From Escherichia coli (lineage in GTDB: Bacteria > Pseudomonadota > Gammaproteobacteria > Enterobacterales > Enterobacteriaceae), in NCBI RefSeq assembly GCF_024502345.1, contig NZ_JALDNN010000003.1: 64,000 nucleotides of DNA; one strand, 5' to 3'. This document shows positions 1,572-64,000 of this stretch, in pieces. The position numbers and the translations under genes were made by a program. Position 1 is the stretch's first letter. Every line of letters begins with the position of its first letter. Under the pieces are notes generated by a model that made no database searches, was not told the origin of the DNA, and saw only the letters and a list, made by a program, of their open reading frames with translations.

Positions 1572-2777
1572 TCATGCCTGGCCCTTGTTCTGCTTTTCAG
1601 CATGTTTACGCAGGTACTGCGTCAGATCGCCGTGAGCTTCACAAATGGCATTCATCTCGTCATTGGTCAGCACCAGAGTGTAAGTATCGTCGCTGAGGTT
1701 CTTAGCGGCCCGTTGTTTAGCTTCTTCCGCAATACGCGAAAACAGCGGGATTGCCGTGTCCGCAATCGTCGTCACGGTCTTTTTGTTCAGTACGCTGGAG
1801 ACCGACACAGCTTTAGGCTCTGGCGTTTTGACCGGGTCTTTCATCTGCGGTGCCGGGGTCCTTTCCGGGGTCGGCTCCGGGTTAGTGCCCGCACTCCCGT
1901 CCACCAGCTGCGGTGGGGTGGTCTCATCGTTAGTACCTTCGCCGGACGTTTGTTCAGTCACGGTGGTTTCCGGGGGGGTCGCATTTGCGTCCGGCACGAT
2001 GGCTGCTTTCGGCTTCATCGCTGCATCAATGTTGCCAGCTTTGACGAATTTCAGGGTTTTGGCCGTCGCCTTACCATAAACATCAATGGCTTTGGTGATG
2101 TTGTTGACCGCTTCATCGCCGCTGTAAAGGTATTCATCCAGCGCGACATACATACTCACTTCACCCTTCACCAACATGGCCTGGAGGGCTTCAGGCAGAT
2201 CCAGGACGCGAACCATCTGACGCAGGTGCTGTTCGGTTTTACCGCGACGCTTCGCCAGTTCAGCGAACGTTTTGGGTTCTTCCGCGTCTTCAACCATCCG
2301 TTTGATGGAGAGCGCCTCAGCTACGACAGACAGAGCCAGATTTGAGTTACCGTCCAGCGTAAACTGCTCGGCACTGGCGCGGCTACCGCGAAACTCCTCG
2401 CATCGAATTAACGTGATCAATTCACGCCCTTCATCTGCCAGCTCGATGTTTGCCATCGCGACGGCACGGATACGGCATGCTCCCTGGCGCAGGACCGGAC
2501 GGCCATTCAGAATCTGTACGACAATAGCTTGTACGCTTAAAGGATCGATCTTGTAGGACTCTTTCAGGCTGTTCAGGTGGGCTACCACGTCAGGTAATGA
2601 GTAGTAACTCTCCCCAATGCCAGCAGTACGGGTGTTAAACCCCTCTTCCTCTTCGACCACTGCCGGGTTAATGACTAGACCATTGCTTTTGCGTGCGCCG
2701 TTACCGGTACGCTCCAGGTAGGTGCGCAGGCTGATATCGTTGTTAGCGGTTTTTACATCATTTTCGACAGTGGACAT
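1572..2777 (-). CDS. ParB/Srx-fold (KorB-like) DNA-binding protein, paralog 1, 401 aa
   Basis: GFNTR...YYSLPDVVAHLNSLKESY...RQGACRIRA (ParB box-like GxxR region) followed by an HTH-like segment. It is clearly homologous to the ORFs at 41183-42346 and 45571-46647. No ParA gene is adjacent. Confidence 0.8.
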   Translation of the reverse strand: MSTVENDVKTANNDISLRTYLERTGNGARKSNGLVINPAVVEEEEGFNTRTAGIGESYYSLPDVVAHLNSLKESYKIDPLSVQAIVVQILNGRPVLRQGACRIRAVAMANIELADEGRELITLIRCEEFRGSRASAEQFTLDGNSNLALSVVAEALSIKRMVEDAEEPKTFAELAKRRGKTEQHLRQMVRVLDLPEALQAMLVKGEVSMYVALDEYLYSGDEAVNNITKAIDVYGKATAKTLKFVKAGNIDAAMKPKAAIVPDANATPPETTVTEQTSGEGTNDETTPPQLVDGSAGTNPEPTPERTPAPQMKDPVKTPEPKAVSVSSVLNKKTVTTIADTAIPLFSRIAEEAKQRAAKNLSDDTYTLVLTNDEMNAICEAHGDLTQYLRKHAEKQNKGQA

Positions 2778-2826
2778 GGTGCCTTCCTTTTAGTTTTCGT
2801 TTAGGGTGTTTGTTCGCTACAAAACA

Positions 2827-2862
2827 ACAATACCAGGTTCGATTCATTTCCTAATAACCTGA
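2827..2862 (-). promoter_or_regulatory. putative sigma70 promoter of the TTATTAG family (TCAGGTTATTAGGAAA - N - TATTGT)
   Basis: The sense-strand motif TCAGGTTATTAG is shared with five other sites. There is a 16-nt spacer to a -10-like TATTGT, about 45 nt upstream of the ParB-like-1 start. Confidence 0.45.
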
Positions 2863-2866
2863 GGCG

Positions 2867-2887
2867 AAAAAAAAGTAACTTTTTTTC
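2867..2887. promoter_or_regulatory. expanded variant of the GAAAAGTWACTTTTC box (G-A8-GTAAC-T7-CC)
   Basis: Near-perfect palindrome centred on GTAAC, about 95 bp upstream of the ParB-like-1 start. Confidence 0.5.
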
Positions 2888-2986
2888 CGGGGGTTATAGT
2901 ACGCGATCCGTCCGTTTTAAATTCTCGCTAAGGAGGGCAAATTTCACTTTAGTGTGAAAAGCGGGTACATAAAGCAGGAATATGTC

Positions 2987-3001
2987 GAAAAAGTTACTTT
3001 C
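2987..3001. promoter_or_regulatory. GAAAAGTWACTTTTC-type box (2 mismatches) with a CCCGGTTGCC extension
   Basis: The sequence gaaaaagttactttcccggttgcc has the same right-hand extension as the box at 20951. Confidence 0.5.
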
Positions 3002-3260
3002 CCGGTTGCCTGAAAAAATGCCGTTGCAGCAAACACAAGGTGTGAACACCCCCCCCGCCCCGGCGGCTCCGGGCAAAGGAGTATCCGATGAAGCTTTCCC
3101 GGCAGACCACAAATGATACGGCTGTAATCGAAGGCACCCGCAGATTACCGACCATATCGCCTCCCAGCGAGCCACCGAAGCCAAAAAAGACGGCATGAAT
3201 TTTAATGCAGGCGTTGAGCTTGCATCTAAAAGGAACTGTGCAACGAGGACAAACATTACC

Positions 3261-3461
3261 ATGATTGAACACCGCACAGAGATGCGCCAAACGGCCATTA
3301 AATCGCTTCAGGAAGCCGAAGAAGCATTGACGGCACTGGCTATGTCCTATGAGCTACAGCCCGATGATAAGGCCAGTTCGTGTCATCCACGGACCGGTAC
3401 TCTCTCCACGGCCAGCCAGGTACGGAAATTGCGCCGTGTCGTCGAAAAGCAGAAAACTTGA
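3261..3461 (+). CDS. hypothetical small protein, 66 aa (the ORF track starts at 3195)
   Basis: ATG at 3261 lies 11 nt after GAGGA. The ORF is followed by a good plus-strand hairpin with a T-run at 3540-3567. No homology is recognised. Confidence 0.35.
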   Translation: MIEHRTEMRQTAIKSLQEAEEALTALAMSYELQPDDKASSCHPRTGTLSTASQVRKLRRVVEKQKT

Positions 3462-3539
3462 AATTCGACAAGGCGGCGGGTAGCTATTTCCTGCATGTAC
3501 AAACTAACAAGGGTTTAGCCGACGATAGAAAGGAAAAAA

Positions 3540-3567
3540 GGGTTTCCCCGACCGGAGAAACCCTTTT
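3540..3567 (+). terminator. rho-independent-type terminator
   Basis: Stem GGGTTTC / GAAACCC around a 10-nt loop, followed by TTTT and preceded by an A-run, so it could act in both directions. Confidence 0.55.
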
Positions 3568-3606
3568 CTAAAGGTGCCATTAGCTTGCTGGCCCACATTC
3601 TGAAAT

Positions 3607-3626
3607 GAGGGGGGTCGCCCCCCCTC
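3607..3626 (-). terminator. GC-rich hairpin at the 3' end of the hok transcript
   Basis: 8-bp stem GAGGGGGG / CCCCCCTC with a 4-nt loop, immediately downstream of the hok stop. Confidence 0.45.
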
Positions 3627-3632
3627 TTTCAG

Positions 3633-3791
3633 CTACTTACCGGATTCGTAGTCCATCACAGCCGACACTTCCCGTGTACCGTCTTTCAGCCTCAGTTCGC
3701 AGAGCGAATTGCGCGTAAGCCAGGTGAATATCAACAGCGTAAGACATACTATCAATACGCACAAAACAACGGGTTGGTTCGGCAGTTTCAT
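3633..3791 (-). CDS. hok: Hok-family membrane toxin (type I toxin-antitoxin), 52 aa
   Basis: [52 protein letters not shown] has the same length and near-identical architecture as R1 Hok. The ORF-track entry 3633-3935 is an in-frame upstream extension (mok-like leader region). Confidence 0.9.
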
Positions 3792-3839
3792 GGCCTTCTT
3801 CTCCTTGCATTTAAGCGGGTAAGAGGCTACTCTGAATGT

Positions 3840-3899
3840 GACTAGCATACAGGGGCCTCGGGTTAATTTGAAAAAATTACTCGGGGCTTTCTGCTTTTT
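3840..3899 (+). ncRNA. sok: candidate Sok-like antisense RNA
   Basis: Antisense to the hok leader. TTGCAT (3805-3810), a 17-nt spacer and TACTCT (3828-3833) precede a long imperfect hairpin at 3856-3886 and a T-run ending near 3899. The ends are inferred, not measured. Confidence 0.4.
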
Positions 3900-4148
3900 A
3901 CCACAGTCAAACAGTGAATCTGCTGGCTGGGGCAAAAGCCTCCAGCACCGAGGTTATTATACCACCCCGCCCCTTTTAAACGAACAGATCGTTCTCCTAA
4001 ATATTTAATAAGTAAGTATTTCAGGTTTTGCTGCTTCGCAGGCTGTAACAGCAGGTGTCTGACGTAATAACTGATTAAACAGACGGATTCGAATCTCAAC
4101 ACTCAACGACGCCAGCTCGCCTGTTCCCCCGCTTCTTTCCGGCTGTAA

Positions 4149-4754
4149 TCAGTCCGTTTTCGTACCAGCGATCAGTGACAAACGGTGAGCACGAACACTA
4201 CTGTGCCGGAGGCTGTCCGGGTAATGGGCGATTTTCTCCAGTTCCTCATCGAGGCGGGTATACGTCAGCCTCCTGATTTTCAAGATTTCCTTGTGAAGCC
4301 AGCGTTTGATAAAGGGATTGCCGGAAAGCAGTACCAGGTCTGCATCCTCCACTTCATCAAAAAGCCAGACGGGTTTTGCCGGAGTAAGGCGGTAGAGCCA
4401 GGTGCGGGAAAACTCCCCCGTTGCAATCAGAAACCAGACAACCATGCCAAGTGCGAACTCGATGACCAGCATCAGGGTAAACTGAATATCCCGGACGTCA
4501 GGCTCTCCGGTAAAGCTCATTAGGCGGTCGCCAGTTGCCAGACGCTGAATAATACAGACCAGCATCAGCAGAGCCAGTAACAGCGCCATGAGCAGCCCGC
4601 CGTTCACTTCAAAAGTAGCTTTCTGGACGCGATCAGGCGGCACCTGCTTACGGTAGCGGCCGACCACATCACCAATCATTACCCTGATGGCTATGCGTTC
4701 TTCATCGACCGTTGTTTCGGTAAATCCGGACGGGCCCGTTTCTGTTTGATTCAT
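4149..4754 (-). CDS. hypothetical membrane protein, 201 aa
   Basis: Long ORF with two hydrophobic segments (LLMALLLALLMLVCII and FTLMLVIEFALGMVVWFLI). Confidence 0.6.
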   Translation of the reverse strand: MNQTETGPSGFTETTVDEERIAIRVMIGDVVGRYRKQVPPDRVQKATFEVNGGLLMALLLALLMLVCIIQRLATGDRLMSFTGEPDVRDIQFTLMLVIEFALGMVVWFLIATGEFSRTWLYRLTPAKPVWLFDEVEDADLVLLSGNPFIKRWLHKEILKIRRLTYTRLDEELEKIAHYPDSLRHSSVRAHRLSLIAGTKTD

Positions 4755-4967
4755 GTACCCTCTCCTCTCTCTGAAAAATAATGGTAAGACGCAAGCTGAT
4801 CATACCAGGTGAGCAGGAGTGGTTTTGTCGGTTAAAGGCTGGAAAAAAACGGTTAAAAAAAGAGGGAAATGACAGCAAGAAGGTGGGATGCAGTAAGCGG
4901 CTTTGGTTCCCTCCGGTTCTGTGGGGAGGAAACGGCCAGAACAGCAGACCGATACGATGGGCGGGCG

Positions 4968-6952: not shown

Positions 6953-7903
6953 TTACAACCAGTTCTTCCGCTTAAAGTACAGATACGGTGCCAGGCCCGC
7001 GAGGATCATAAAGATAATCGCGGCAGGGTAGCCGAAGCTCCACTTCAGTTCTGGCATAAACTCAAAGTTCATGCCATAGCTGGAAGCAACGAGCGTCGGC
7101 GGCAGGAATACCACGGATACCACCGAGAAGATTTTGATGATGCGGTTCTGCTCGATGTTGATAAAACCCATTGCCGCCTGCATCAGGAAGTTCACCTTCT
7201 GGAACAGGGATTCGTTATGCGGCAGCAGGGATTCGATATCTCGCAGGATTTCACGCGCCTGCTCCAGTTGCCCACCCGGTAAACGCGCTTTACGCACCAG
7301 GAAGTTGAGCGCGCGCTGGGTATCCATCAGACACAGGCGAACTTTCCAGCCGATATCTTCCAGTTCCGCCAGCGTGGAGAGCGCCTCGTCGTACTCATCG
7401 CCCTGATGCCCTTCCATAATCACCCGGCTCAACTGCTCCAGGTCGCTATAGATATTTTCAATTTCATCTGCCAACTGTTCGATTTTGGTTTCGAACAGAT
7501 CCAGCAGCAACTCGTAGGCGTTACCGTCTACCATCGACTGGCTACGGGCACGCATACGATACAGACGAAAAGCGGGCAGTTCACGCTCACGCAGAGTAAA
7601 CAGACGACCATCACGGATGGTAAATGCCACAGTGGAGTTACCGGCGTGATCTTCCGCATCTTCAAAGAAGAAGAAGGAGTGAATATGCAGGCCGTCGTCG
7701 TCTTCAAAGAAACGTGCCGATGCTTCGATGTCTTCCAGTTCCGGGCGGGTTGCCAGGCTCTGGCCAAGTTCAGATTGTAAGCGCAGTCGCTCGTCGTCGT
7801 CCGGTTCGACAAGATCAATCCATACTGCATTTACAAGGGGTTGTGACTCTTCGACTTCCAGCCGGGTCAGTCGGTTATTTTCCAGTTGAAATGCGCTCAG
7901 CAT
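6953..7903 (-). CDS. corA: CorA magnesium/cobalt transporter, 316 aa, chromosomal type
   Basis: [38 protein letters not shown]...[13 protein letters not shown]...YFKRKNWL matches E. coli/Salmonella CorA, including the GMN motif. The native start is at 7903; the ORF track extends to 7918. Confidence 0.95.
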
Positions 7904-8302
7904 GACCGGGACTCCCAATGCTTAAAATATCGGACAGTTCGGTGGGCACACAGAAACAAATTGGGTTTCAGACCATTAAACAGCCTGACTCAGCGCGACG
8001 GGAAAAATTGAGGTCGCTGACAACCGCTAAGGCTATCAGCAAAAAGGGATAGCCTTAGGAGTTGATCCTGGATGACAGGATAGTGAGCCAGTATCTACTG
8101 GGTGTGTCCAAGGCGAATGTCCTCTTAGAGTGATCGTGCGCGCATGTTACGCCAGCAAAATTTTGCCGTCAACACGCAACAGAACACCACAGAACAATAG
8201 TTGAACTTCGCGCTTTTTGGTACTCGTCAAGGTCGCTAACAGGATAAAAAAATCCCACATCCAGGACCTATAATGGCGCATCAGCTACTCATTGGTAAAG
8301 GA

Positions 8303-8551
8303 ATGATCACCTTGAATCTCAAACGGATTTTTCTCGCCCTCACCTTACTTCCCTTGTTTGCTGTTGCCGCTGATGATTGCGCACTCTCAGATCCGACGCT
8401 GACCGTACAGGCGTATACCGTTAATCCTCAAACAGAGCGGGTGAAAATGTACTGGCAAAAAGCCAATGGCGAAGCGTGGGGAACGTTACATGCTCTGCTG
8501 GCGGATATTAATAGTCAGGGTCAGGTGCAGATGGCGATGAACGGCGGCATC
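8303..8551 (+). pseudogene. 3'-truncated signal-peptide gene divergent from corA (probably the chromosomal corA neighbour, yigE-like)
   Basis: MITLNLKRIFLALTLLPLFAVAADD...MAMNGGI then runs into unrelated AT-rich DNA at about 8551, where the 9-mer ttaaatttg begins. Confidence 0.5.
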
Positions 8552-56302: not shown

Positions 56303-58984
56303 ATGAGATCAGCTAACGTCTATAATAAAGAATTAAGCCGTCATCAGTTAGGTGGATTTATTCCCGTGTATGATCAGATTCCGGGTACACATTATTTTCT
56401 ACTTGACGGAAACCGACTCGGTTTTATGTTTATCTGTAGTCCGTCGCCCGGTGTCTTTGATAATCAGCAGGATGTGTTAACTGAATTATTTAAAATGGAC
56501 TTCCCAGCTGACACCATCTGTCAGACCTCATTAACTGCGCTGCCAGACTTGATCTTGCACTTAAGTGCCTGGTCTGCCGTTCGTGGTGGTCGAATGGAAG
56601 GTCATGATAAGCTTAAGGGGGATTTACTCACTGCATATCAACTGGATTATTATGACCGAAGCCTGAATGAACCTTTGAAGCCGGACCACGATAAATTGAT
56701 GCTTCGAGATTTTCAGGTCTGGATTTCCTTTTCAATTCCATTGAAGTCAGCACTTCCTTCTGAAATAGAAAAGACTCGCATTGATGCGCTTTACTCTGAC
56801 TTAATCAGTAAGTTGAATACAGTAGGCCTTTTCCCACACAAAGTTGGTGCTGAAAATTGGCTTTATTGCATGGATAAGTTATTGCATCCGGGAAAAACAT
56901 CGCGTTGGTCTGAAGGTCATGTTGAAGCTAGCACCATGAGACGCCTAAACGAGCAGATCAATGTACCGGGTCGAAAATATACAGTGACAGAGAATCATTT
57001 CTCATCTACAACGCAGAGCAATGATATTTCTGAGCATCGTTATTTCAAACAATTATCAGTAGTGAAGTTTCCAGAATTTGTAAACTTTGGCTGCATGTAT
57101 GAACTTGTAGTTAATTGGTTGAATGGACGTAAAACGATCTTTAGCCCTTTCATGATAACCCAGACTGTCCATTTCGCCGATCCTTTAAAATTATCAAGAG
57201 AAAACGTCAGATATAAGGCAATTACTAACAAACAAGCCAGTATTCCAACAGTTTTGACGTTTTGTCCAAGATTAAAGGATATGGATAATGATTACATGAC
57301 GATAACACGCGAACTGGAAGATGGGGCTCGCCTCCTACACAGTTATCTGACATTTACTGTAATGGGGAATTCAGCAGTTGATGTTCAGTCTGCCGCAGAC
57401 CAGTTAAAATCATTTTATCTGGAAAGTCGTGTTAATGTTGCTGATGACTCGTACATAGTATTTCCCTCATTTGTTTCAAGCCTGCCGATGTGTAATGACC
57501 CAAAGACAATACTAGAACTGGATCGTTTTGAGGTCGTGAGTAATACTGGTGCTGCGCACATGACCCCCATATTTGGTCCTTGGAAAGGTAATACGGACAG
57601 ACCCGTACTTAACCTTGTCTCACGAGAAGGACAGCTGTTGGGGCTGGATATCTTCAAGACTTCTGCCAGCTATAACATGGTCGTTGGTGCAACGTCTGGT
57701 GCTGGTAAATCATTCTGGGTCGCATACATCATTAATAATTATCTAGGCGCAGGTCCGCGTTCTAATAATCTGATCCATTATCGAGATACTTTTGAGGGAT
57801 TCAAAAACAATTCTTATGATGCATTTGACCCTGATGGAGCCCAGATTTTCGTAGTTGATGTCGGACGCTCATACCAAGGTATTTCGGAACAATATACTAA
57901 TAGTCAGTTTATAGACTTTGGGAAAAAGCCTGATTTTACGCTAAATCCATTCGCATTTTTGACTGATGTGACTGTTGGAGAGCGTGTTTTTGATGAAGCA
58001 CCTGTCTTTAATGACGATTCAAATAATCATGATGATGATAAGGATAAAGTAGCCCAGACCATTATGGTTCTAAACCAGTTAAAAATAATGGCATCTGAAA
58101 AAGGAAATATTGACGATTTTCAACAATCGGTCATGCTGCAACTGATTAGTGAAGAATATAACGAATCACGCAAAGTTGGACGTACAGGCTCTATTACTGG
58201 ATTTGCGCGACGCTGTTCTAACCATGAAGATAAGCGTATTAAAGATATCGGTGACCAGTTGGGGCAATGGTGTGAAGGAGGGATTTATGGGAATCGCTTT
58301 ACAGAAAATCTCCCGCCAATAAATTTTGATAGCCGGTTTATTGTTCTGGAACTTGAAGAATTGAAGGGGACCCCACACCTTCAGACTGTCGTTCTGATGT
58401 CGATTATTCAGGCCGCTCAGCATGCAATGTTTATCAAGAAAGACGGACGCCGCCGGTTGTTCATACTTGATGAGGCATGGGAGTATATCCGTCCGGACAA
58501 TGCTTCAGGTTCCAGTAATCATTCAAATCAATTTTTCTCCTCTTTCCTTGAGGCCGCTTGGCGCCGATTCAGGAAAACGAACTGTGCCGGTATTTGTATT
58601 ACTCAATCCTTTGAAGATTACTTCACCTCATCGGTTGGTCGCGCACTAACGGCTAACTCGCCGTGGAAGATCATCATGAAGCAGGAAAAGGAAAGTATTG
58701 AAGCCATGAAGGTGAACAACTACTTCTCCACAACTGATGCGGAATATGAGCGTATGAAAAATATTCGAACGGTAAAGCGTGCATTTTCCGAGATGCTCGT
58801 ACGATTCGAAAATTTCCAGGAGATATGTCGCCTCTATGTAGATAGAAAAATGGAGCTTTGCTTTACGACTGACAGCACCGATCGTGGAAAACTATGGGAA
58901 ATCCAAAGCCGACTTGATTGCTCTTACGGCGAAGCAATTGAGATTCTGTACGAACAGGAAGTTGCGAGCAAATCAGCTGCCTGA
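56303..58984 (+). CDS. trhC: TraC/VirB4-like conjugation ATPase, 893 aa
   Basis: Walker A motif GATSGAGKS and a Walker B-like RRLFILDEAW. Size and position are typical of TraC. Confidence 0.9.
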   Translation: MRSANVYNKELSRHQLGGFIPVYDQIPGTHYFLLDGNRLGFMFICSPSPGVFDNQQDVLTELFKMDFPADTICQTSLTALPDLILHLSAWSAVRGGRMEGHDKLKGDLLTAYQLDYYDRSLNEPLKPDHDKLMLRDFQVWISFSIPLKSALPSEIEKTRIDALYSDLISKLNTVGLFPHKVGAENWLYCMDKLLHPGKTSRWSEGHVEASTMRRLNEQINVPGRKYTVTENHFSSTTQSNDISEHRYFKQLSVVKFPEFVNFGCMYELVVNWLNGRKTIFSPFMITQTVHFADPLKLSRENVRYKAITNKQASIPTVLTFCPRLKDMDNDYMTITRELEDGARLLHSYLTFTVMGNSAVDVQSAADQLKSFYLESRVNVADDSYIVFPSFVSSLPMCNDPKTILELDRFEVVSNTGAAHMTPIFGPWKGNTDRPVLNLVSREGQLLGLDIFKTSASYNMVVGATSGAGKSFWVAYIINNYLGAGPRSNNLIHYRDTFEGFKNNSYDAFDPDGAQIFVVDVGRSYQGISEQYTNSQFIDFGKKPDFTLNPFAFLTDVTVGERVFDEAPVFNDDSNNHDDDKDKVAQTIMVLNQLKIMASEKGNIDDFQQSVMLQLISEEYNESRKVGRTGSITGFARRCSNHEDKRIKDIGDQLGQWCEGGIYGNRFTENLPPINFDSRFIVLELEELKGTPHLQTVVLMSIIQAAQHAMFIKKDGRRRLFILDEAWEYIRPDNASGSSNHSNQFFSSFLEAAWRRFRKTNCAGICITQSFEDYFTSSVGRALTANSPWKIIMKQEKESIEAMKVNNYFSTTDAEYERMKNIRTVKRAFSEMLVRFENFQEICRLYVDRKMELCFTTDSTDRGKLWEIQSRLDCSYGEAIEILYEQEVASKSAA

Positions 58985-59602
58985 CGTTTTAAGTTACTGG
59001 TTACCTCATTTTGTTTTGACTGAGGTATCCAGTACGTCTTTGAAGTAAATAGTTTTTAGCTGTCATTGCCTGCCCTCCCCCGAAATAATAGCCCGGGTTA
59101 AGAATATCTAGCTCGGATTAAGTCCTCTCAAACCGTCATACATGAAATTCGATTCCTTTTTCATTCTTCTTTTGAAGGTGAATGAATATGATGAAATTTA
59201 CTCCAGAATTATTCTCCCTACCAGGCTTTTGCTGTGAAGTTAATCAGATCAGGTATTATGTTTTGGGTACAAGAACCAACCAAGGTGGGTGTGGTTTTTG
59301 TATGGCAGATGCAAACATCGTTTTTACGGTTATAATAAATAACCATTATATAGATGAATTTATCGTTTTTTCTTTTAAGTCTTTGAAATAATTGGATCTA
59401 ATATCTAGATGATGGTTGTATAAACTATACGTTAATTAGATTTGAGAATGCAACTGTGATGCGATGCGTAGATATTATTAAGGTGAGTGGTTTGTTAAAA
59501 CAACCAAAAAAACAAGTAAGATCAGGTCTTATCTCCATAATAACTTAACCATCTAACTTTCTGGTTGGAATAAGAAACCATTTTAAGCTTATTCAATAAC
59601 GA

Positions 59603-59950
59603 AATTTAACCACTTGAATCGACTGACCATGGAGGAAAGCTGGTCGTGTCCCGTGGCATTTAACCCCCTTAATCGCCAGACCATGGAGGAAAGCTGGTTG
59701 CTTACCGTGGCATTTAACCCCCTTAATCGCCAGACCATGGAGGAAAGCTGGTCGTGTCCCGTGGTATTTAACTCCCTTAATCGCCAGACCATGGGGGGAA
59801 GCTGGTCGGGTACTGTGGCATTTAACCCCTTAATCGGCAGACCATGGAGGGATTATTGCCGGGTACCAGGCCATTTAACCACTTACTCGTCTGTACACGA
59901 TGGGATGCTGGTCGCGTAGCGCGGAATTGCTCCCCTATTCACCAGTTCTT
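59603..59950. repeat. tandem repeat block 1, about 6.4 units of 53-54 bp
   Basis: Units start near 59603, 59657, 59711, 59765, 59819 and 59872. The core is CATTTAACCCCCTTAATCGCCAGACCATGG. The last two units are degenerate. Confidence 0.9.
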
Positions 59951-60563
59951 TGCTAAAGGAAAGCCAGTCTAAAAGGTTTTCCGGCCAAAACTTTTTTTGT
60001 TTCACTACAGTTATTCGTCCTTCCGTTCAGCGTGATAAAATATACAAAAACGTAGAGGTAACCCATAAAAGTAAAAGAGCTTATAGACCAGCTTAAAAGG
60101 CTCGACCCGGATGCGTATGTAGTAGTTGCTGGATTTGAAAACCAGTGTACTGGACACGTGGCTGAAGCAGATACCATTAAAGAATGCATGACAATTCCTG
60201 TACGAGCGGACAGCATGTCAGGTGACCGTACGCTTGCAAAAGATGGATCACCTTCAGTCTAGTTGAGGGGGGGAGATGACTACCGCACGGAATACTTCGT
60301 TAGTGCAATAGACGACACGGATGAATTGGCCTAATTATACGAATTGCCAAAAAACTCTCTTATTGTCAATTGGGGGTATGGGCAATTCATATTGATTGCC
60401 AAATATTTTTTGGGTATTCGGGATGTCCTAACAACAGGATTTGCCGAATACCCTATTTTTTTGCCAAATATTTCGTCATTCTAAGTCGAGATCCAGGCCG
60501 AATATCTTTTAATCTAATCCACTCAATAGACAGATTCTGGTGGGATACTTATTGTGTACCGTC

Positions 60564-62525
60564 GTATTAAACCCACTTAACCGCTAGGGCGTCACGTTGT
60601 CCTGTCTGCAAGCCGAGGCAATTTCCCCTTTAGCCAATGACCACGGTGCCTGCTGGTCGGGTACCGTGGGATTTAACCCCCATAATCGCCAGACCATGGA
60701 GGCAAGCTGGTCGGGTACCGTGGCATTTAACCCCCTTAATCGCCAGGCCATGGGGAGGCTGGTCGCGTAGCGTGGCATTAAACCCTTTAATCGCCAGGAC
60801 ATGGGGTCATGCTGGTCAGGTACCGTGGTATTTAACTCCCTTATTCGCCAGACCATGGGGAATGCTGGTCGCGTATCCTGGCATTTAACCCCCTTAATCG
60901 CCAGAGCATGGCGGGAAGCTGGTCGGGTACCGTGGGATTTAACCCCCTTAATCGCCAGACCATGGAGGAAAGCTGGGCGTGTCCCATGGAATTTAACCCC
61001 CTTAATCGCCAGACCATGGAGGAAAGCTGGTCGTGTCCCGTGGCATTTAACCCCCTTAATCGCCAGGCCATGGGGAGGCTGGTCGCGTAGCGTGGCATTA
61101 AACCCTTTAATCGCCAGGACATGGGGTCATGCTGGTCAGGTACCGTGGTATTTAACTCCCTTATTCGCCAGACCATGGGGAATGCTGGTCGCGTATCCTG
61201 GCATTTAACCCCCTTAATCGCCAGAGCATGGCGGGAAGCTGGTCGGGTACCGTGGGATTTAACCCCCTTAATCGCCAGACCATGGAGGAAAGCTGGGCGT
61301 GTCCCATGGAATTTAACCCCCTTAATCGCCAGACCATGGAGGAAAGCTGGTCGTGTCCCGTGGCATTTAACCCCCTTAATCGCCAGGCCATGGGGAGGCT
61401 GGTCGCGTAGCGTGGCATTAAACCCTTTAATCGCCAGGACATGGGGTCATGCTGGTCAGGTACCGTGGTATTTAACTCCCTTATTCGCCAGACCATGGGG
61501 AATGCTGGTCGCGTATCCTGGCATTTAACCCCCTTAATCGCCAGAGCATGGCGGGAAGCTGGTCGGGTACCGTGGGATTTAACCCCCTTAATCGCCAGAC
61601 CATGGAGGAAAGCTGGGCGTGTCCCATGGAATTTAACCCCCTTAATCGCCAGACCATGGAGGAAAGCTGGTCGTGTCCCGTGGCATTTAACCCCCTTAAT
61701 CGCCAGGCCATGGGGAGGCTGGTCGCGTAGCGTGGCATTAAACCCTTTAATCGCCAGGACATGGGGTCATGCTGGTCAGGTACCGTGGTATTTAACTCCC
61801 TTATTCGCCAGACCATGGGGAATGCTGGTCGCGTATCCTGGCATTTAACCCCCTTAATCGCCAGAGCATGGCGGGAAGCTGGTCGGGTACCGTGGCATTT
61901 AACCCCCTTAATCGCCAGGCCATGGGGTGGCTGGTCGCGTAGCGTGGCATTTAACCCCCTTAATCGCCAGGCTATGGGGAAGCTGGTCTCGTAGCGTGGC
62001 ATTTAACCCCCTTAATCGCCAGGCTATGGGGAAGCAGGTCGCGTAGTGTGGCATTTAACCCCCTTAATCGCCAGGCCATGGAGAAGCTGTTCGCGTAGCG
62101 TGGCATTTAACCTCCTTAATCGCCAGGCTATGGGGAAGCTGGTCTCGTAGCGTGGCATTTAACCCCCTTAATCGCCAGGCTATGGGGAAGCAGGTCGCGT
62201 AGTGTGGCATTTAACCCCCTTAATCGGCAGGCCATGGAGAAGCTGGTCGCGTAGCGTGGCATTTAACCCCCTTAATCGCCAGGCCATGGGGAAGCTGGTC
62301 GCTTAGCGTGGCATTTAACCCCCTTAATCGCCAGAGCATGGCGGGAAGCTGGTCGGGTACCGTGGCATTTAACCCCCTTAATCGCCAGGCCATGGAGGAA
62401 TGCTGGTCTCGTACCATGGCATTTAACCCCCTTAATCGCCAGGCTATGGGGTAATGCTGGTCGGGTACCGTGGGATTTACCCCCCTTATTGCCACATCTA
62501 TGGAGTGATCCTGCTATGTCGGAAG
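60564..62525. repeat. tandem repeat block 2, about 37 units of 52-54 bp (candidate partition/incompatibility repeat field upstream of parA)
   Basis: The same unit family as block 1, head to tail without spacers, with degenerate units at both edges. Confidence 0.9.
60724..61897. repeat. higher-order repeat: a 320-bp block of six subunits (52+53+53+54+54+54 bp), 3 full identical copies plus a 4-subunit partial copy
   Basis: Block starts at 60724, 61044, 61364 and 61684. Sequence lines and the ORF-track translations (135-aa and 111-aa ORFs spaced exactly 320 bp apart) are identical between copies. Confidence 0.9.
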
Positions 62526-62659
62526 ATTGGTATTGTTGATACTTAAGAGGCTTTTGGAAGACTTCAATGAACTGCCAATTGAAATTCAATAATGCAGATA
62601 TTCCAAAATCTAAGAAAAGAATACAGAACGTTAGCGTAATAATAGAATTAAGGTTACTA

Positions 62660-62716
62660 TTAAACGCATAACGCTAAAGTATACGCATTATGCGTAAAGT
62701 TTACGTATATACGTTT
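62660..62716. promoter_or_regulatory. palindromes in the parA promoter region (candidate ParA autoregulation operator)
   Basis: TACGCATTATGCGTA (62682-62696) and ACGTATATACGT (62703-62714), with related ACGCATAACG upstream, 40-90 bp before the parA ATG. Confidence 0.45.
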
Positions 62717-62751
62717 AATTTCACTATTTAGGTAAAAGGGATCGGAAGAGA

Positions 62752-64000
62752 ATGAATCTAATTGATAAGATCGCCCTTGTCGGTCAACGCATGAAGAGCG
62801 AGCAGATCTCTCTGAAAGAGTCATTATTGGTCTCTTCGAGGGTTTCGGTATCGGATGATAGTGTAGACGGTGTTGATCGCCTAATCTATAACCACTGCTT
62901 GAATAAAAAAAATCTGTCAGATTTTTTTGGTAAATCTCGCGTAACTTTTAACAAAATCTTAGCGGATCTTGAAGAAAAAGAACTGGTTGGTGCTCCTATC
63001 TACCAGAACAAAAACCATCTCTATACCCGCTGGGATGTCCAGAAAATAATGGATGCTCTGAACTATCCTCGATATAGCGACTACTACTGTAGCCGTACAA
63101 TCGTAACGCAGAACCATAAGGGTGGTACGGGGAAGAGTACAACTTCAGGCGTTCTTGCAGTTGCGGCAGCACTTGATTTGCATCTAAACGCGCGAATACT
63201 GTTGATCGAATGGGACCCACAAGGGTCTATTGGAAGCGGGATGATCCAGAGCGTAGCGGAAGATGATGTTTTCCTGACTGCTATTGACGCCATCTTAGGG
63301 GTTTACGAAGAAGACTCAGATTACAGAAAATATCTTGATTTAGGGTACTCGGAAGAACAAATTATTGAAGGTATGCCTTTTTCAACACACCTTCCGAATC
63401 TTGATGTTATTACCGCATTCCCTACAGATGCACGTTTCAAAGATAAATACTGGCAGTGTTCCAGAGAAGAACGAACTGAGTTATTACTACGTTTTAAAGA
63501 GGTAATCCTGCCGGTCTTGAAGAGCAAGTACGACCTGATCATTATCGATACTCCACCAGAAGATTCGCCAATCACATGGGCAGCGGATGAAGCTGCTGAT
63601 GGCATTTTGGTTGCCGTTTCACCTCGTGAGTATGATTATGCCTCAACAACTGATTTCATGTTGACGCTCAGTGAGCGATTCAAACAATCGCCGAGCAAGG
63701 GCGAAAATCTAAGCTGGTTCAAAGTGTTGGCAGTGAATGTCGACGATAAGAGTCCCTATGAAAAGATTGTCCTGGATAAACTGGTAAGGACAGTGCAGGA
63801 ACTCTTTATGTCTGCAAATATCAAAAACTCAGAAGCGTTTAAAGCCGCAGCTTCTAGGGGTAGAACCGTATTGGATATTAAAAAATCAGAAGAGCTCTGC
63901 TCTCCCAAACAGCTTGATGTTGCCGAAGAATCCGTGATGGCGGTCTACCAGCAATTTATTAATGAGATTAAGAGTTTTTCAGTGAAGCAAGGGGGTAATG
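62752..64000 (+). CDS. parA: type Ia ParA partition ATPase, 3'-partial (runs off the window)
   Basis: My own translation is MNLIDKIALVGQRMK...TQNHKGGTGKSTTSGVLA (deviant Walker A)...LIIIDTPPE (Walker B). The roughly 110-aa N-terminal extension is typical of P1/F-type ParA/SopA. It is absent from the ORF track because it has no stop codon in the window. Confidence 0.9.
   Translation, partial: MNLIDKIALVGQRMKSEQISLKESLLVSSRVSVSDDSVDGVDRLIYNHCLNKKNLSDFFGKSRVTFNKILADLEEKELVGAPIYQNKNHLYTRWDVQKIMDALNYPRYSDYYCSRTIVTQNHKGGTGKSTTSGVLAVAAALDLHLNARILLIEWDPQGSIGSGMIQSVAEDDVFLTAIDAILGVYEEDSDYRKYLDLGYSEEQIIEGMPFSTHLPNLDVITAFPTDARFKDKYWQCSREERTELLLRFKEVILPVLKSKYDLIIIDTPPEDSPITWAADEAADGILVAVSPREYDYASTTDFMLTLSERFKQSPSKGENLSWFKVLAVNVDDKSPYEKIVLDKLVRTVQELFMSANIKNSEAFKAAASRGRTVLDIKKSEELCSPKQLDVAEESVMAVYQQFINEIKSFSVKQGGN

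Follow-up and report, generated by a model that had tools for sequence, protein, structure and literature searches.

A tandem array of P1-type bipartite sites upstream of parA is the probable centromere of IncHI1 plasmids

The subject of this study is a large array of tandem repeats located between the conjugal transfer gene trhC and the partition gene parA on an Escherichia coli contig (NZ_JALDNN010000003.1), within a stretch of 64,000 nucleotides that we refer to as the window. The window matches conjugative plasmids of the R27-type IncHI1 group (293 PLSDB records). We found that the array is very probably the parS centromere of the IncHI1 Par1 (ParA/ParB) partition system, because a 21-bp core within the repeats travels with a clade of parAB genes, has the architecture of the minimal parS of plasmid P1, and co-varies with the DNA-reading parts of ParB. 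An earlier note on this DNA had proposed that the array serves the adjacent type Ia parAB genes as a centromere or as a partition-incompatibility site, and the comparative evidence from conservation, architecture, and co-variation speaks in favor of that proposal. Judged from sequence, the array would be classified as a type Ia ParABS centromere of the P1 ParB family with a sopC-like tandem organization, in a plasmid family that has long been sequenced.

The array consists of 45 unit-like segments of 52 to 54 bp between positions 59604 and 62515, which are arranged head-to-tail on the + strand in two blocks. These segments were delimited by aligning a consensus unit along positions 59400 to 62700, where good units scored 80 to 101. 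Tandem Repeats Finder (TRF) reported 4.6 copies of a 54-bp unit at 59604-59850 (87% matches) and 34.6 copies of a unit of approximately 53 bp at 60652-62488 (84% matches), the second of which also has a higher-order period of 320 bp, or six units (93% matches). Repeat families at 54-bp, 52-bp, and 320-bp spacing agree with the TRF arrays. The approximately 43 units, their coordinates, and the division into two blocks that the earlier note had read from the sequence were therefore borne out by both TRF and the consensus-guided parse.

Block A (59604-59969, + strand) comprises six units of 52 to 54 bp up to position 59924, of which the last two are degenerate, and a 40-nt remnant at 59930-59969; core 21-mers begin at positions 59658, 59712, and 59766. 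A 542-bp insert without repeats (59970-60511), which appears in the parse as a gap between units, separates block A from block B, which opens at its 5′ edge with three degenerate units (60512-60669, + strand; alignment scores, 31 to 45). Block B proper (60671-62473, + strand) has 34 good units, each with the core ATTTAACCCCCTTAATCGCCA. Within it, the six-unit, 320-bp higher-order repeat is present four times at 60652-61911, and a 52-bp sub-run is found at about 61821-62393, with the 52-bp sub-family placed at about 61897-62312. The consensus-guided parse ends with a degenerate terminal unit that begins with ATTTACCCCCCTTATTGCCAC (62475-62515, + strand).

The 21-mer ATTTAACCCCCTTAATCGCCA is represented in the 64-kb window by 24 exact copies and nine copies with one or two mismatches. 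Each of these 33 copies has + strand orientation and falls in 59658-62441 (shuffled sequences give an expectation of 0), and none is located elsewhere in the window. Over the first 22 nt, the columns of the 39 good units are 96% identical, versus 84% over the remainder, in agreement with the earlier description of a 5′ half that is invariant and a 3′ half that varies more. The G+C content of the array (55 to 57%) is also different from that of its flanks (36 to 45%). A search of Rfam matched no family.

To the repeats of the window we compared those of fetched par loci, whose ParB proteins are 83% to 45% identical to the ParB of R27, using pattern search, TRF, alignment, and sequence reading. 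A Citrobacter freundii plasmid (ParB identity, 83%) has 10.5 units of 54 bp with the identical 21-mer and another 3′ half. IncHI2 plasmids (72%) have the exact 21-mer once per 249 bp in two blocks, and a Buttiauxella contig (68%) has approximately 11 units of 43 bp with a core that is the same except for a G as its first base. On the Lelliottia and Kluyvera contigs (73 to 74%), which have a 55- to 56-bp period, the generic pattern AACCCCNTTNNTCGC was matched by pattern search only. A Klebsiella IncFIB/IncHI1B-type plasmid and plasmid pK92-qnrS (46%) carry 36 and 41 units, respectively, of 66 to 67 bp with the variant core AAAACAACCCC(C/G)TTGTTCGCAG, and no relation is seen between the spacers of these two arrays or between either of them and those of IncHI1. 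The core always has the orientation of parAB, and it accompanies parAB on IncHI1, IncHI2, IncFIB/IncHI1B, IncU, and unrelated replicons, whatever the neighboring genes. These comparisons indicate that the 21-bp core alone is under cross-lineage constraint, and that the approximately 30 bp between the cores are a lineage-specific spacer. Helical phasing was considered as a further constraint and rejected, with periods of 43, 52 to 56, 66 to 67, and 249 bp. A functional role was also rejected for the CCATGG palindrome and the CCAG...CTGG inverted elements that the earlier note had singled out; the C. freundii, Buttiauxella, IncHI2, and Klebsiella units lack them, and they are probably part of the spacer.

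The number of units is polymorphic among close IncHI1 relatives, with 18.6 units of block B in NZ_CP044968, 21.6 in R27, and 34.6 in the window. The Par1 locus of R27 is otherwise closely similar, with a 100% identical ParB, the same order of trhC, array, parA, and parB, and the same two blocks and insert, but it has approximately 27 units (5.6 + 21.6) versus approximately 40 to 45 in the window. The extra units of the window are mainly copies of the 320-bp, six-unit higher-order repeat, and its interval between trhC and parA is the longest among 13 covering records. Such variation, together with higher-order repeats that point to recent amplification and degenerate units at the edges of the array, is what one would see if the array were a selfish or neutral satellite that has grown by slippage or unequal crossing-over. 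A satellite, however, is difficult to reconcile with a core that is identical at ParB identities of 72 to 83% despite replaced spacers and periods of 43, 54, 56, 67, and 249 bp, and with the reappearance of a single copy beside parB in distant taxa. We therefore consider this explanation very unlikely.

These distant taxa are Providencia, Xenorhabdus, and Commensalibacter, whose loci (ParB identity, 45 to 51%) have no array. Instead, a single AAAACAACCCCCTTGTTCGCCAA is located 0 to 190 bp after the parB stop codon, which is the position of the P1 site (single downstream cores were seen in loci L006, L026, L027, L028, and L029). From pattern length and locus size, we estimate that the generic 12-base pattern is expected approximately 0.002 times in such a locus. 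The single site that the distant relatives retain is downstream of parB, and the location of the array upstream of parA is therefore derived. The earlier note had called the size of the array, its upstream position, and its division into two blocks noteworthy. Large arrays are usual in the clade and reach approximately 56 units in a Klebsiella plasmid.

Several loci have additional features. The Klebsiella IncFIB/IncHI1B-type plasmid and pK92-qnrS also have second, shorter arrays downstream of parB (3.4 and 14.4 units, respectively), and in Klebsiella grimontii arrays are present on both sides of parAB. The double-sided arrays of the Klebsiella type are located at 2086-4853 and 7568-8530 of locus L008, at 2060-4419 and 7694-7915 of L007, and at 1-442 and 3235-3589 of L030; these three loci are flanked by genes for Ig-like domains, not by tra genes. 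In pK92-qnrS, the 41 units upstream and 14 units downstream of parAB amount to approximately 3.7 kb. The array of the IncHI2 plasmid p628-mcr (L005, 2292-3320 and 3750-4871) has its blocks separated by a duplicated stretch of approximately 230 bp. The 249-bp IncHI2 unit contains one intact core and three apparently decayed sub-units (for example, CACTTGCTCCCTTAATACGAAATG and GATTAAAGTCAC...), which suggests that it is a higher-order repeat with one sub-unit still functional. An IncHI2-type parAB with a core array of 249-bp period is also found in a record labeled as a complete Enterobacter hormaechei “chromosome” (L024; CP169086.1, 98.7 to 111.7 kb), which hints that an IncHI2 plasmid has integrated or that the assembly was wrongly joined. 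In Commensalibacter communis, an alphaproteobacterial bee-gut symbiont and thus distant from the other loci’s enterobacterial hosts, the single core (L029, 7000-7044) is inside a longer perfect inverted repeat, AAATTTCTTTGGC...GCCAAAGAAATTT.

The family of the ParB protein is another line of evidence. In a search of PDB, IncHI1 ParB matched P1 ParB(142-333) (1zx4 and 2ntz; E of about 4e−17 over residues 150 to 327), a match that takes in the HTH region of P1 ParB, and, as the third match, the helix-turn-helix (HTH) domain of Shigella VirB (3vwb; E = 2.5e−6), while SopB was absent from the matches at E ≤ 1. The protein belongs to Pfam family PF08775, the P1 ParB C-terminal family (E = 8e−13), and is approximately 28% identical to P1 and P7 ParB over approximately 90% of its length (tblastn). 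In P1 ParB, the HTH domain reads heptamer A-boxes, and the dimer domain at the C terminus reads hexamer B-boxes (PMC2910045, PMC3597684); the B-box is contacted via the β1-β2 and β2-β3 loops, which SopB does not have (PMC2910045). IncHI1 ParB keeps the β1-β2 loop region, which is two residues longer than that of P1, and the GSRRR arginine patch is invariant in the compared ParB proteins.

The minimal centromere of P1 combines two A-boxes with a single B-box (PMC2910045, PMC3597684). In the core ATTTAACCCCCTTAATCGCCA, we recognize (A)TTTAA as an A-box-like arm, CCCCC as a spacer, TTAA(T) as an inverted arm, and TCGCCA as a B-box, which read as ATTTAA-CCCCC-TTAAT-CGCCA, with TCGCCA overlapping the last T of the right arm. 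The annotated parS of P1 has B-boxes TCGCCA and A-boxes ATTTCAC and ATTTCAA, and its right half reads ATTTCAA-G-GTGAAAT-CGCCA. The layout of the core therefore matches the A2-A3-B2 part of P1 parS (ATTTCAAGGTGAAATCGCCA), which is its minimal form. As regards membership in the P1 par family, the A-box/B-box centromere is found at the sequence level only. The B-box of P7, TTCCCA, is unlike that of P1, and this difference is the basis of the species specificity of the two systems.

Beyond the identical B-box and the shared ParB fold family (1zx4, PF08775), IncHI1 resembles P1 and P7 in the heptamer (ATTTAAC in IncHI1 versus ATTTCAC or ATTTCAA in P1), in the order of arm, inverted arm, and B-box with its overlap of the arm’s last T, in a long ParA with an upstream palindrome, and, among the distant members of the clade, in a single site after parB. 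It differs in having approximately 40 tandem copies versus one composite site, in the absence of a site for integration host factor (IHF) and of a second (left) arm, in the location of the array upstream of parA versus downstream of parB in P1, in an inter-arm spacer of 5 nt (CCCCC) versus 3 nt in P1, and in a ParB that shares only the above 28% of its residues. The inverted repeat of Shigella VirB is likewise built from ATTTCA-type boxes; VirB, however, is a regulator without a ParA partner, B-box reading, or a tandem array. The VirB HTH domain recognizes an inverted repeat (PMC3905869).

The earlier note had named sopC of plasmid F as the closest analogue of the array. This sopC consists of 12 tandem 43-bp repeats that are bound by SopB and act as a partition-incompatibility determinant (PMC3177203, PMC3597684). 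IncHI1 and F share head-to-tail direct repeats, with one dyad-type site for the centromere protein in each, and a type Ia system with a long ParA. In contrast to the 16-bp inverted repeat of sopC, the IncHI1 site is bipartite (arms of 4 to 5 bp and a hexamer), its unit is 52 to 54 bp long and present in approximately 3.5 times as many copies, and the array is upstream of parA versus downstream of the B gene. P1/P7 parS is closer on account of the P1-family ParB and the identical B-box, and the likeness to sopC is limited to the tandem array. Hence, P1 parS is the closest homologue of the IncHI1 site, and sopC an organizational analogue only.

A further line of evidence is the co-variation of the site with ParB. 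In ParB alignments, arms TTTAA are accompanied by the recognition-helix segment SHVSV(S/A)KR in all TTTAA lineages, and arms AACAA/TTGTT by the helix xE(S/T)(V/I)RKR in all AACAA lineages; in P1 and P7, arms TTTCA are found with the helix AKVTRA. The AACAA...TTGTT arms of the distant lineages form an unambiguous inverted repeat. Between TTTAA...TTAA of IncHI1 and AACAA...TTGTT, two symmetric positions are changed jointly (T/A to C/G and T/A to A/T), and the dyad is preserved by these compensatory arm changes. The B-box varies together with the C terminus of ParB: TCGCCA is found with GRK(I/V)(R/K)FEFNR (in P1, similarly, with ..YEFNR), TCGCAG of Klebsiella with GQKVSFEFKR, TTCCCA of P7 with ..YEFSR, and the Shewanella site ..TTGTTCCAAAA (ACAA-ACTTTA-TTGT-TCCAAAA) with GRLVKMEFSR. 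Providencia combines arms and a helix of the Klebsiella type (AACAA class) with a B-box TCGCCA and a C terminus of the HI1 type, and because of this mixture, the two DNA modules can be seen to vary independently. We regard these patterns as supportive, rather than conclusive, evidence that the arms and the B-box vary independently, each in step with the part of ParB that, in P1, reads the box in question. The Shewanella site comes from an uncultured Shewanella contig (L031, 7070-7150), where two to three copies of TGTACAAACTTTATT(A/G)TTCCAAAA are located downstream of a parB with 45% identity; in this variant the ACAA/TTGT arms are kept, and the spacer and the B-box-like hexamer differ.

Several observations weigh against the interpretation of the array as a P1-type centromere. 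The A-box heptamer is one position off that of P1, the spacing between arm and B-box differs by 1 nt, and the arms are just 4 to 5 bp long. The TTAA of IncHI1 is self-complementary, and the dyad is evident solely via the relatives. There is no IHF site WATCAANNNNTTR within or near the array; its four matches in the window are located in other parts. Only a handful of independent lineages underlie the co-variation, and a location upstream of parA is not typical of type Ia systems. Finally, the open literature that we searched holds no data on ParB binding, stabilization, or incompatibility for these repeats, and a search of open full texts found no description of an IncHI parS or of the repeats themselves.

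The genes around the array are those of a transfer region and a partition operon. Upstream is trhC, which encodes an IncHI-type conjugal transfer ATPase (56303-58984, + strand; identified as an open reading frame [ORF] and by annotation in matching IncHI1 plasmids). Approximately 100 bp past its stop codon, a 20-bp sequence, AATATATAGCCCGGATTAAG, is tandemly duplicated (59084-59122), and this duplication recurs in R27 (L003, 2224-2262). Downstream, the first 416 of 417 codons of parA (62752-64000, + strand) are within the window, past the end of which the gene runs. Its ATG at position 62752 is 236 bp after the last recognizable unit, close to the 225 bp given in the earlier note. The encoded Walker ATPase has V. 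cholerae ParA2 (7npd, 3e−33) and P1/P7 ParA (3ez2, 3ez9) as its best PDB matches. Because its AAA_31 ATPase domain begins only at residue 115, after an N-terminal extension, it is a long, type Ia ParA. The gene parB is just beyond the window; in R27 and NZ_CP044968, the gene order is trhC, array, parA (417 amino acids [aa]), parB (335 aa, overlapping the parA stop codon), four small genes, and parM. According to two papers that cite Lawley and Taylor 2003, the type I par module of R27 is the major stability determinant and the type II module a minor one (PMC4489591, PMC13245405).

Between the array and parA, we found an imperfect palindrome of 61 bp (62659-62719) with 30-nt arms that are 77% complementary, which includes TACGCATTATGCGTA and ACGTATATACGT and ends 33 bp before the parA ATG. 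TRF detects a 20-bp repeat at the palindrome in the window, R27, and NZ_CP044968 (L001), IncHI2 has a related sequence there, and the annotated ParA operator of P1 occupies the equivalent position. We suggest that the palindrome is a candidate par operator for ParA autoregulation. A simple sigma-70 scan of the palindrome region gave no convincing parA promoter.

The proximity of the array to this region raises the question of whether it could bind ParB and be mainly regulatory, as a reservoir, a silencer of parAB or tra, or an incompatibility sink, with segregation depending on another locus. The array borders the par promoter region, with its end 144 bp from the candidate operator, and it is inside the Tra2 transfer region beside trhC. 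In addition, P1-family ParB proteins spread and silence. However, another core that could serve segregation was found neither in the window nor in the 14-kb par locus of R27, where all 25 cores are upstream of parA and none is downstream of parB or elsewhere outside the array. Moreover, in the relatives that have only one core, it occupies the canonical position of parS. A regulatory side effect would be compatible with centromere function, and a purely regulatory ParB sink is difficult to tell from a centromere on sequence grounds. A mainly regulatory role is therefore improbable.

Tandem direct repeats of similar size can also be iterons, which control replication by titrating a Rep initiator, and IncHI1 plasmids have several iteron-type replicons (PMC4853401). 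The neighbors of the array, however, are trhC and parA, with no adjoining rep gene, and the core follows parAB over different replicon types. The known Rep-linked repeats of R27, incC, which affect its stability via a Rep protein, are at another locus, in the RepFIA-like replicon (PMC4853401). We consider iterons even less likely than a satellite.

The least credible of the explanations that we weighed is that the repeats encode repetitive proteins. ORFs of 60 to 173 aa run through the array on both strands (in the window, for example, at 60801-61208, 61121-61528, and 61441-61848), and the RefSeq annotation of NZ_CP044968 places coding sequences (CDSs) for “hypothetical proteins” inside its array (L001, 4715-5020, 5698-5871, 5902-6129, and 6561-6707). 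Yet the ORFs overlap in different frames and differ between plasmids with the number of units, units of 52 to 53 bp and the 320-bp period break reading frames, and the RefSeq annotation of R27 has no CDS in the array. The annotated “hypothetical proteins” are probably annotation artifacts.

The 542-bp insert between the blocks is nearly identical in R27, while the equivalent region of the C. freundii relative is unrelated. Because it is shared with R27 and absent from C. freundii, we interpret it as an interruption in the IncHI1 lineage and not as a designed two-part structure. The insert holds the remnant of an ORF (60065-60262), a 66-codon frame beginning with IKVKELIDQLKRLDPDAYVVVAGFENQ that has ATA at the position of the start codon and is preceded by a ribosome-binding-like GAGGT motif; it may be a decayed small gene. 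Three of the 13 near-matches to (A/T)TTGCCAAA in the window are clustered in a 125-bp part of the insert (60343-60468), which also has TTTGCCGAA at about position 60441. These motifs could be decayed B-box-like remnants or the sites of another protein. A hairpin with a 7-bp stem followed by a T-run is located at 60381-60400.

Returning to the array as a parS centromere, we infer ParB binding, partition activity, incompatibility, and autoregulation from the comparisons above, and we propose the following mechanism. Each 52- to 54-bp unit would provide one bipartite 21-bp ParB site, whose arms (A-boxes) would be read by the HTH domains of a ParB dimer and whose TCGCCA would be read by the C-terminal dimer domain, by homology with P1 ParB. 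With approximately 33 to 40 competent sites over 2.9 kb, the array would nucleate a ParB complex of very large size, with ParB probably spreading or bridging through the GSRRR arginine patch, and the long ParA would position it over the nucleoid. At the 61-bp palindrome, the operon would probably be repressed by ParA, with ParB as the likely co-repressor, as in P1. Additional arrays supplied in trans would titrate ParB and thereby cause partition incompatibility; an incompatibility determinant specific to IncHI1 is reported to map to this par region. The spacer would drift freely, and the number of units would shift by unequal recombination.

Some of these findings may be new, if incremental, namely the bipartite, P1-type character of the core, its co-variation with ParB module by module, the transition from one site to an array, and arrays of up to approximately 56 units. 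More tentatively, and with somewhat less than even confidence, we conjecture that IncHI-clade centromeres in general are tandem-amplified minimal parS sites of the P1 type, with modular specificity switches and a possible coupling of par and tra. If this conjecture is true, the approximately 45 copies in the window and approximately 56 copies (3.7 kb) in the Klebsiella plasmid would be among the largest bacterial plasmid centromeres. Natural modular specificity switches, apparently undescribed in the literature that we searched, would define partition-incompatibility groups, and the location of the array over the par promoter inside Tra2 might couple ParB loading to the regulation of par and tra.

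IncHI plasmids, which are 180 to 300 kb in size and low in copy number, carry multidrug resistance in Salmonella Typhi, E. coli, and Klebsiella, and their persistence depends on active partition. With a defined 21-bp core, binding assays would have a concrete target, as would incompatibility-based curing and par-based typing of these plasmids. Being composed of higher-order repeats, the array may come out collapsed in short-read assemblies. For the family as a whole, we suggest that the clade illustrates how a two-module ParB, with its HTH and dimer domains, may change centromere specificity, and how a single P1-like site may turn into a sopC-like array.

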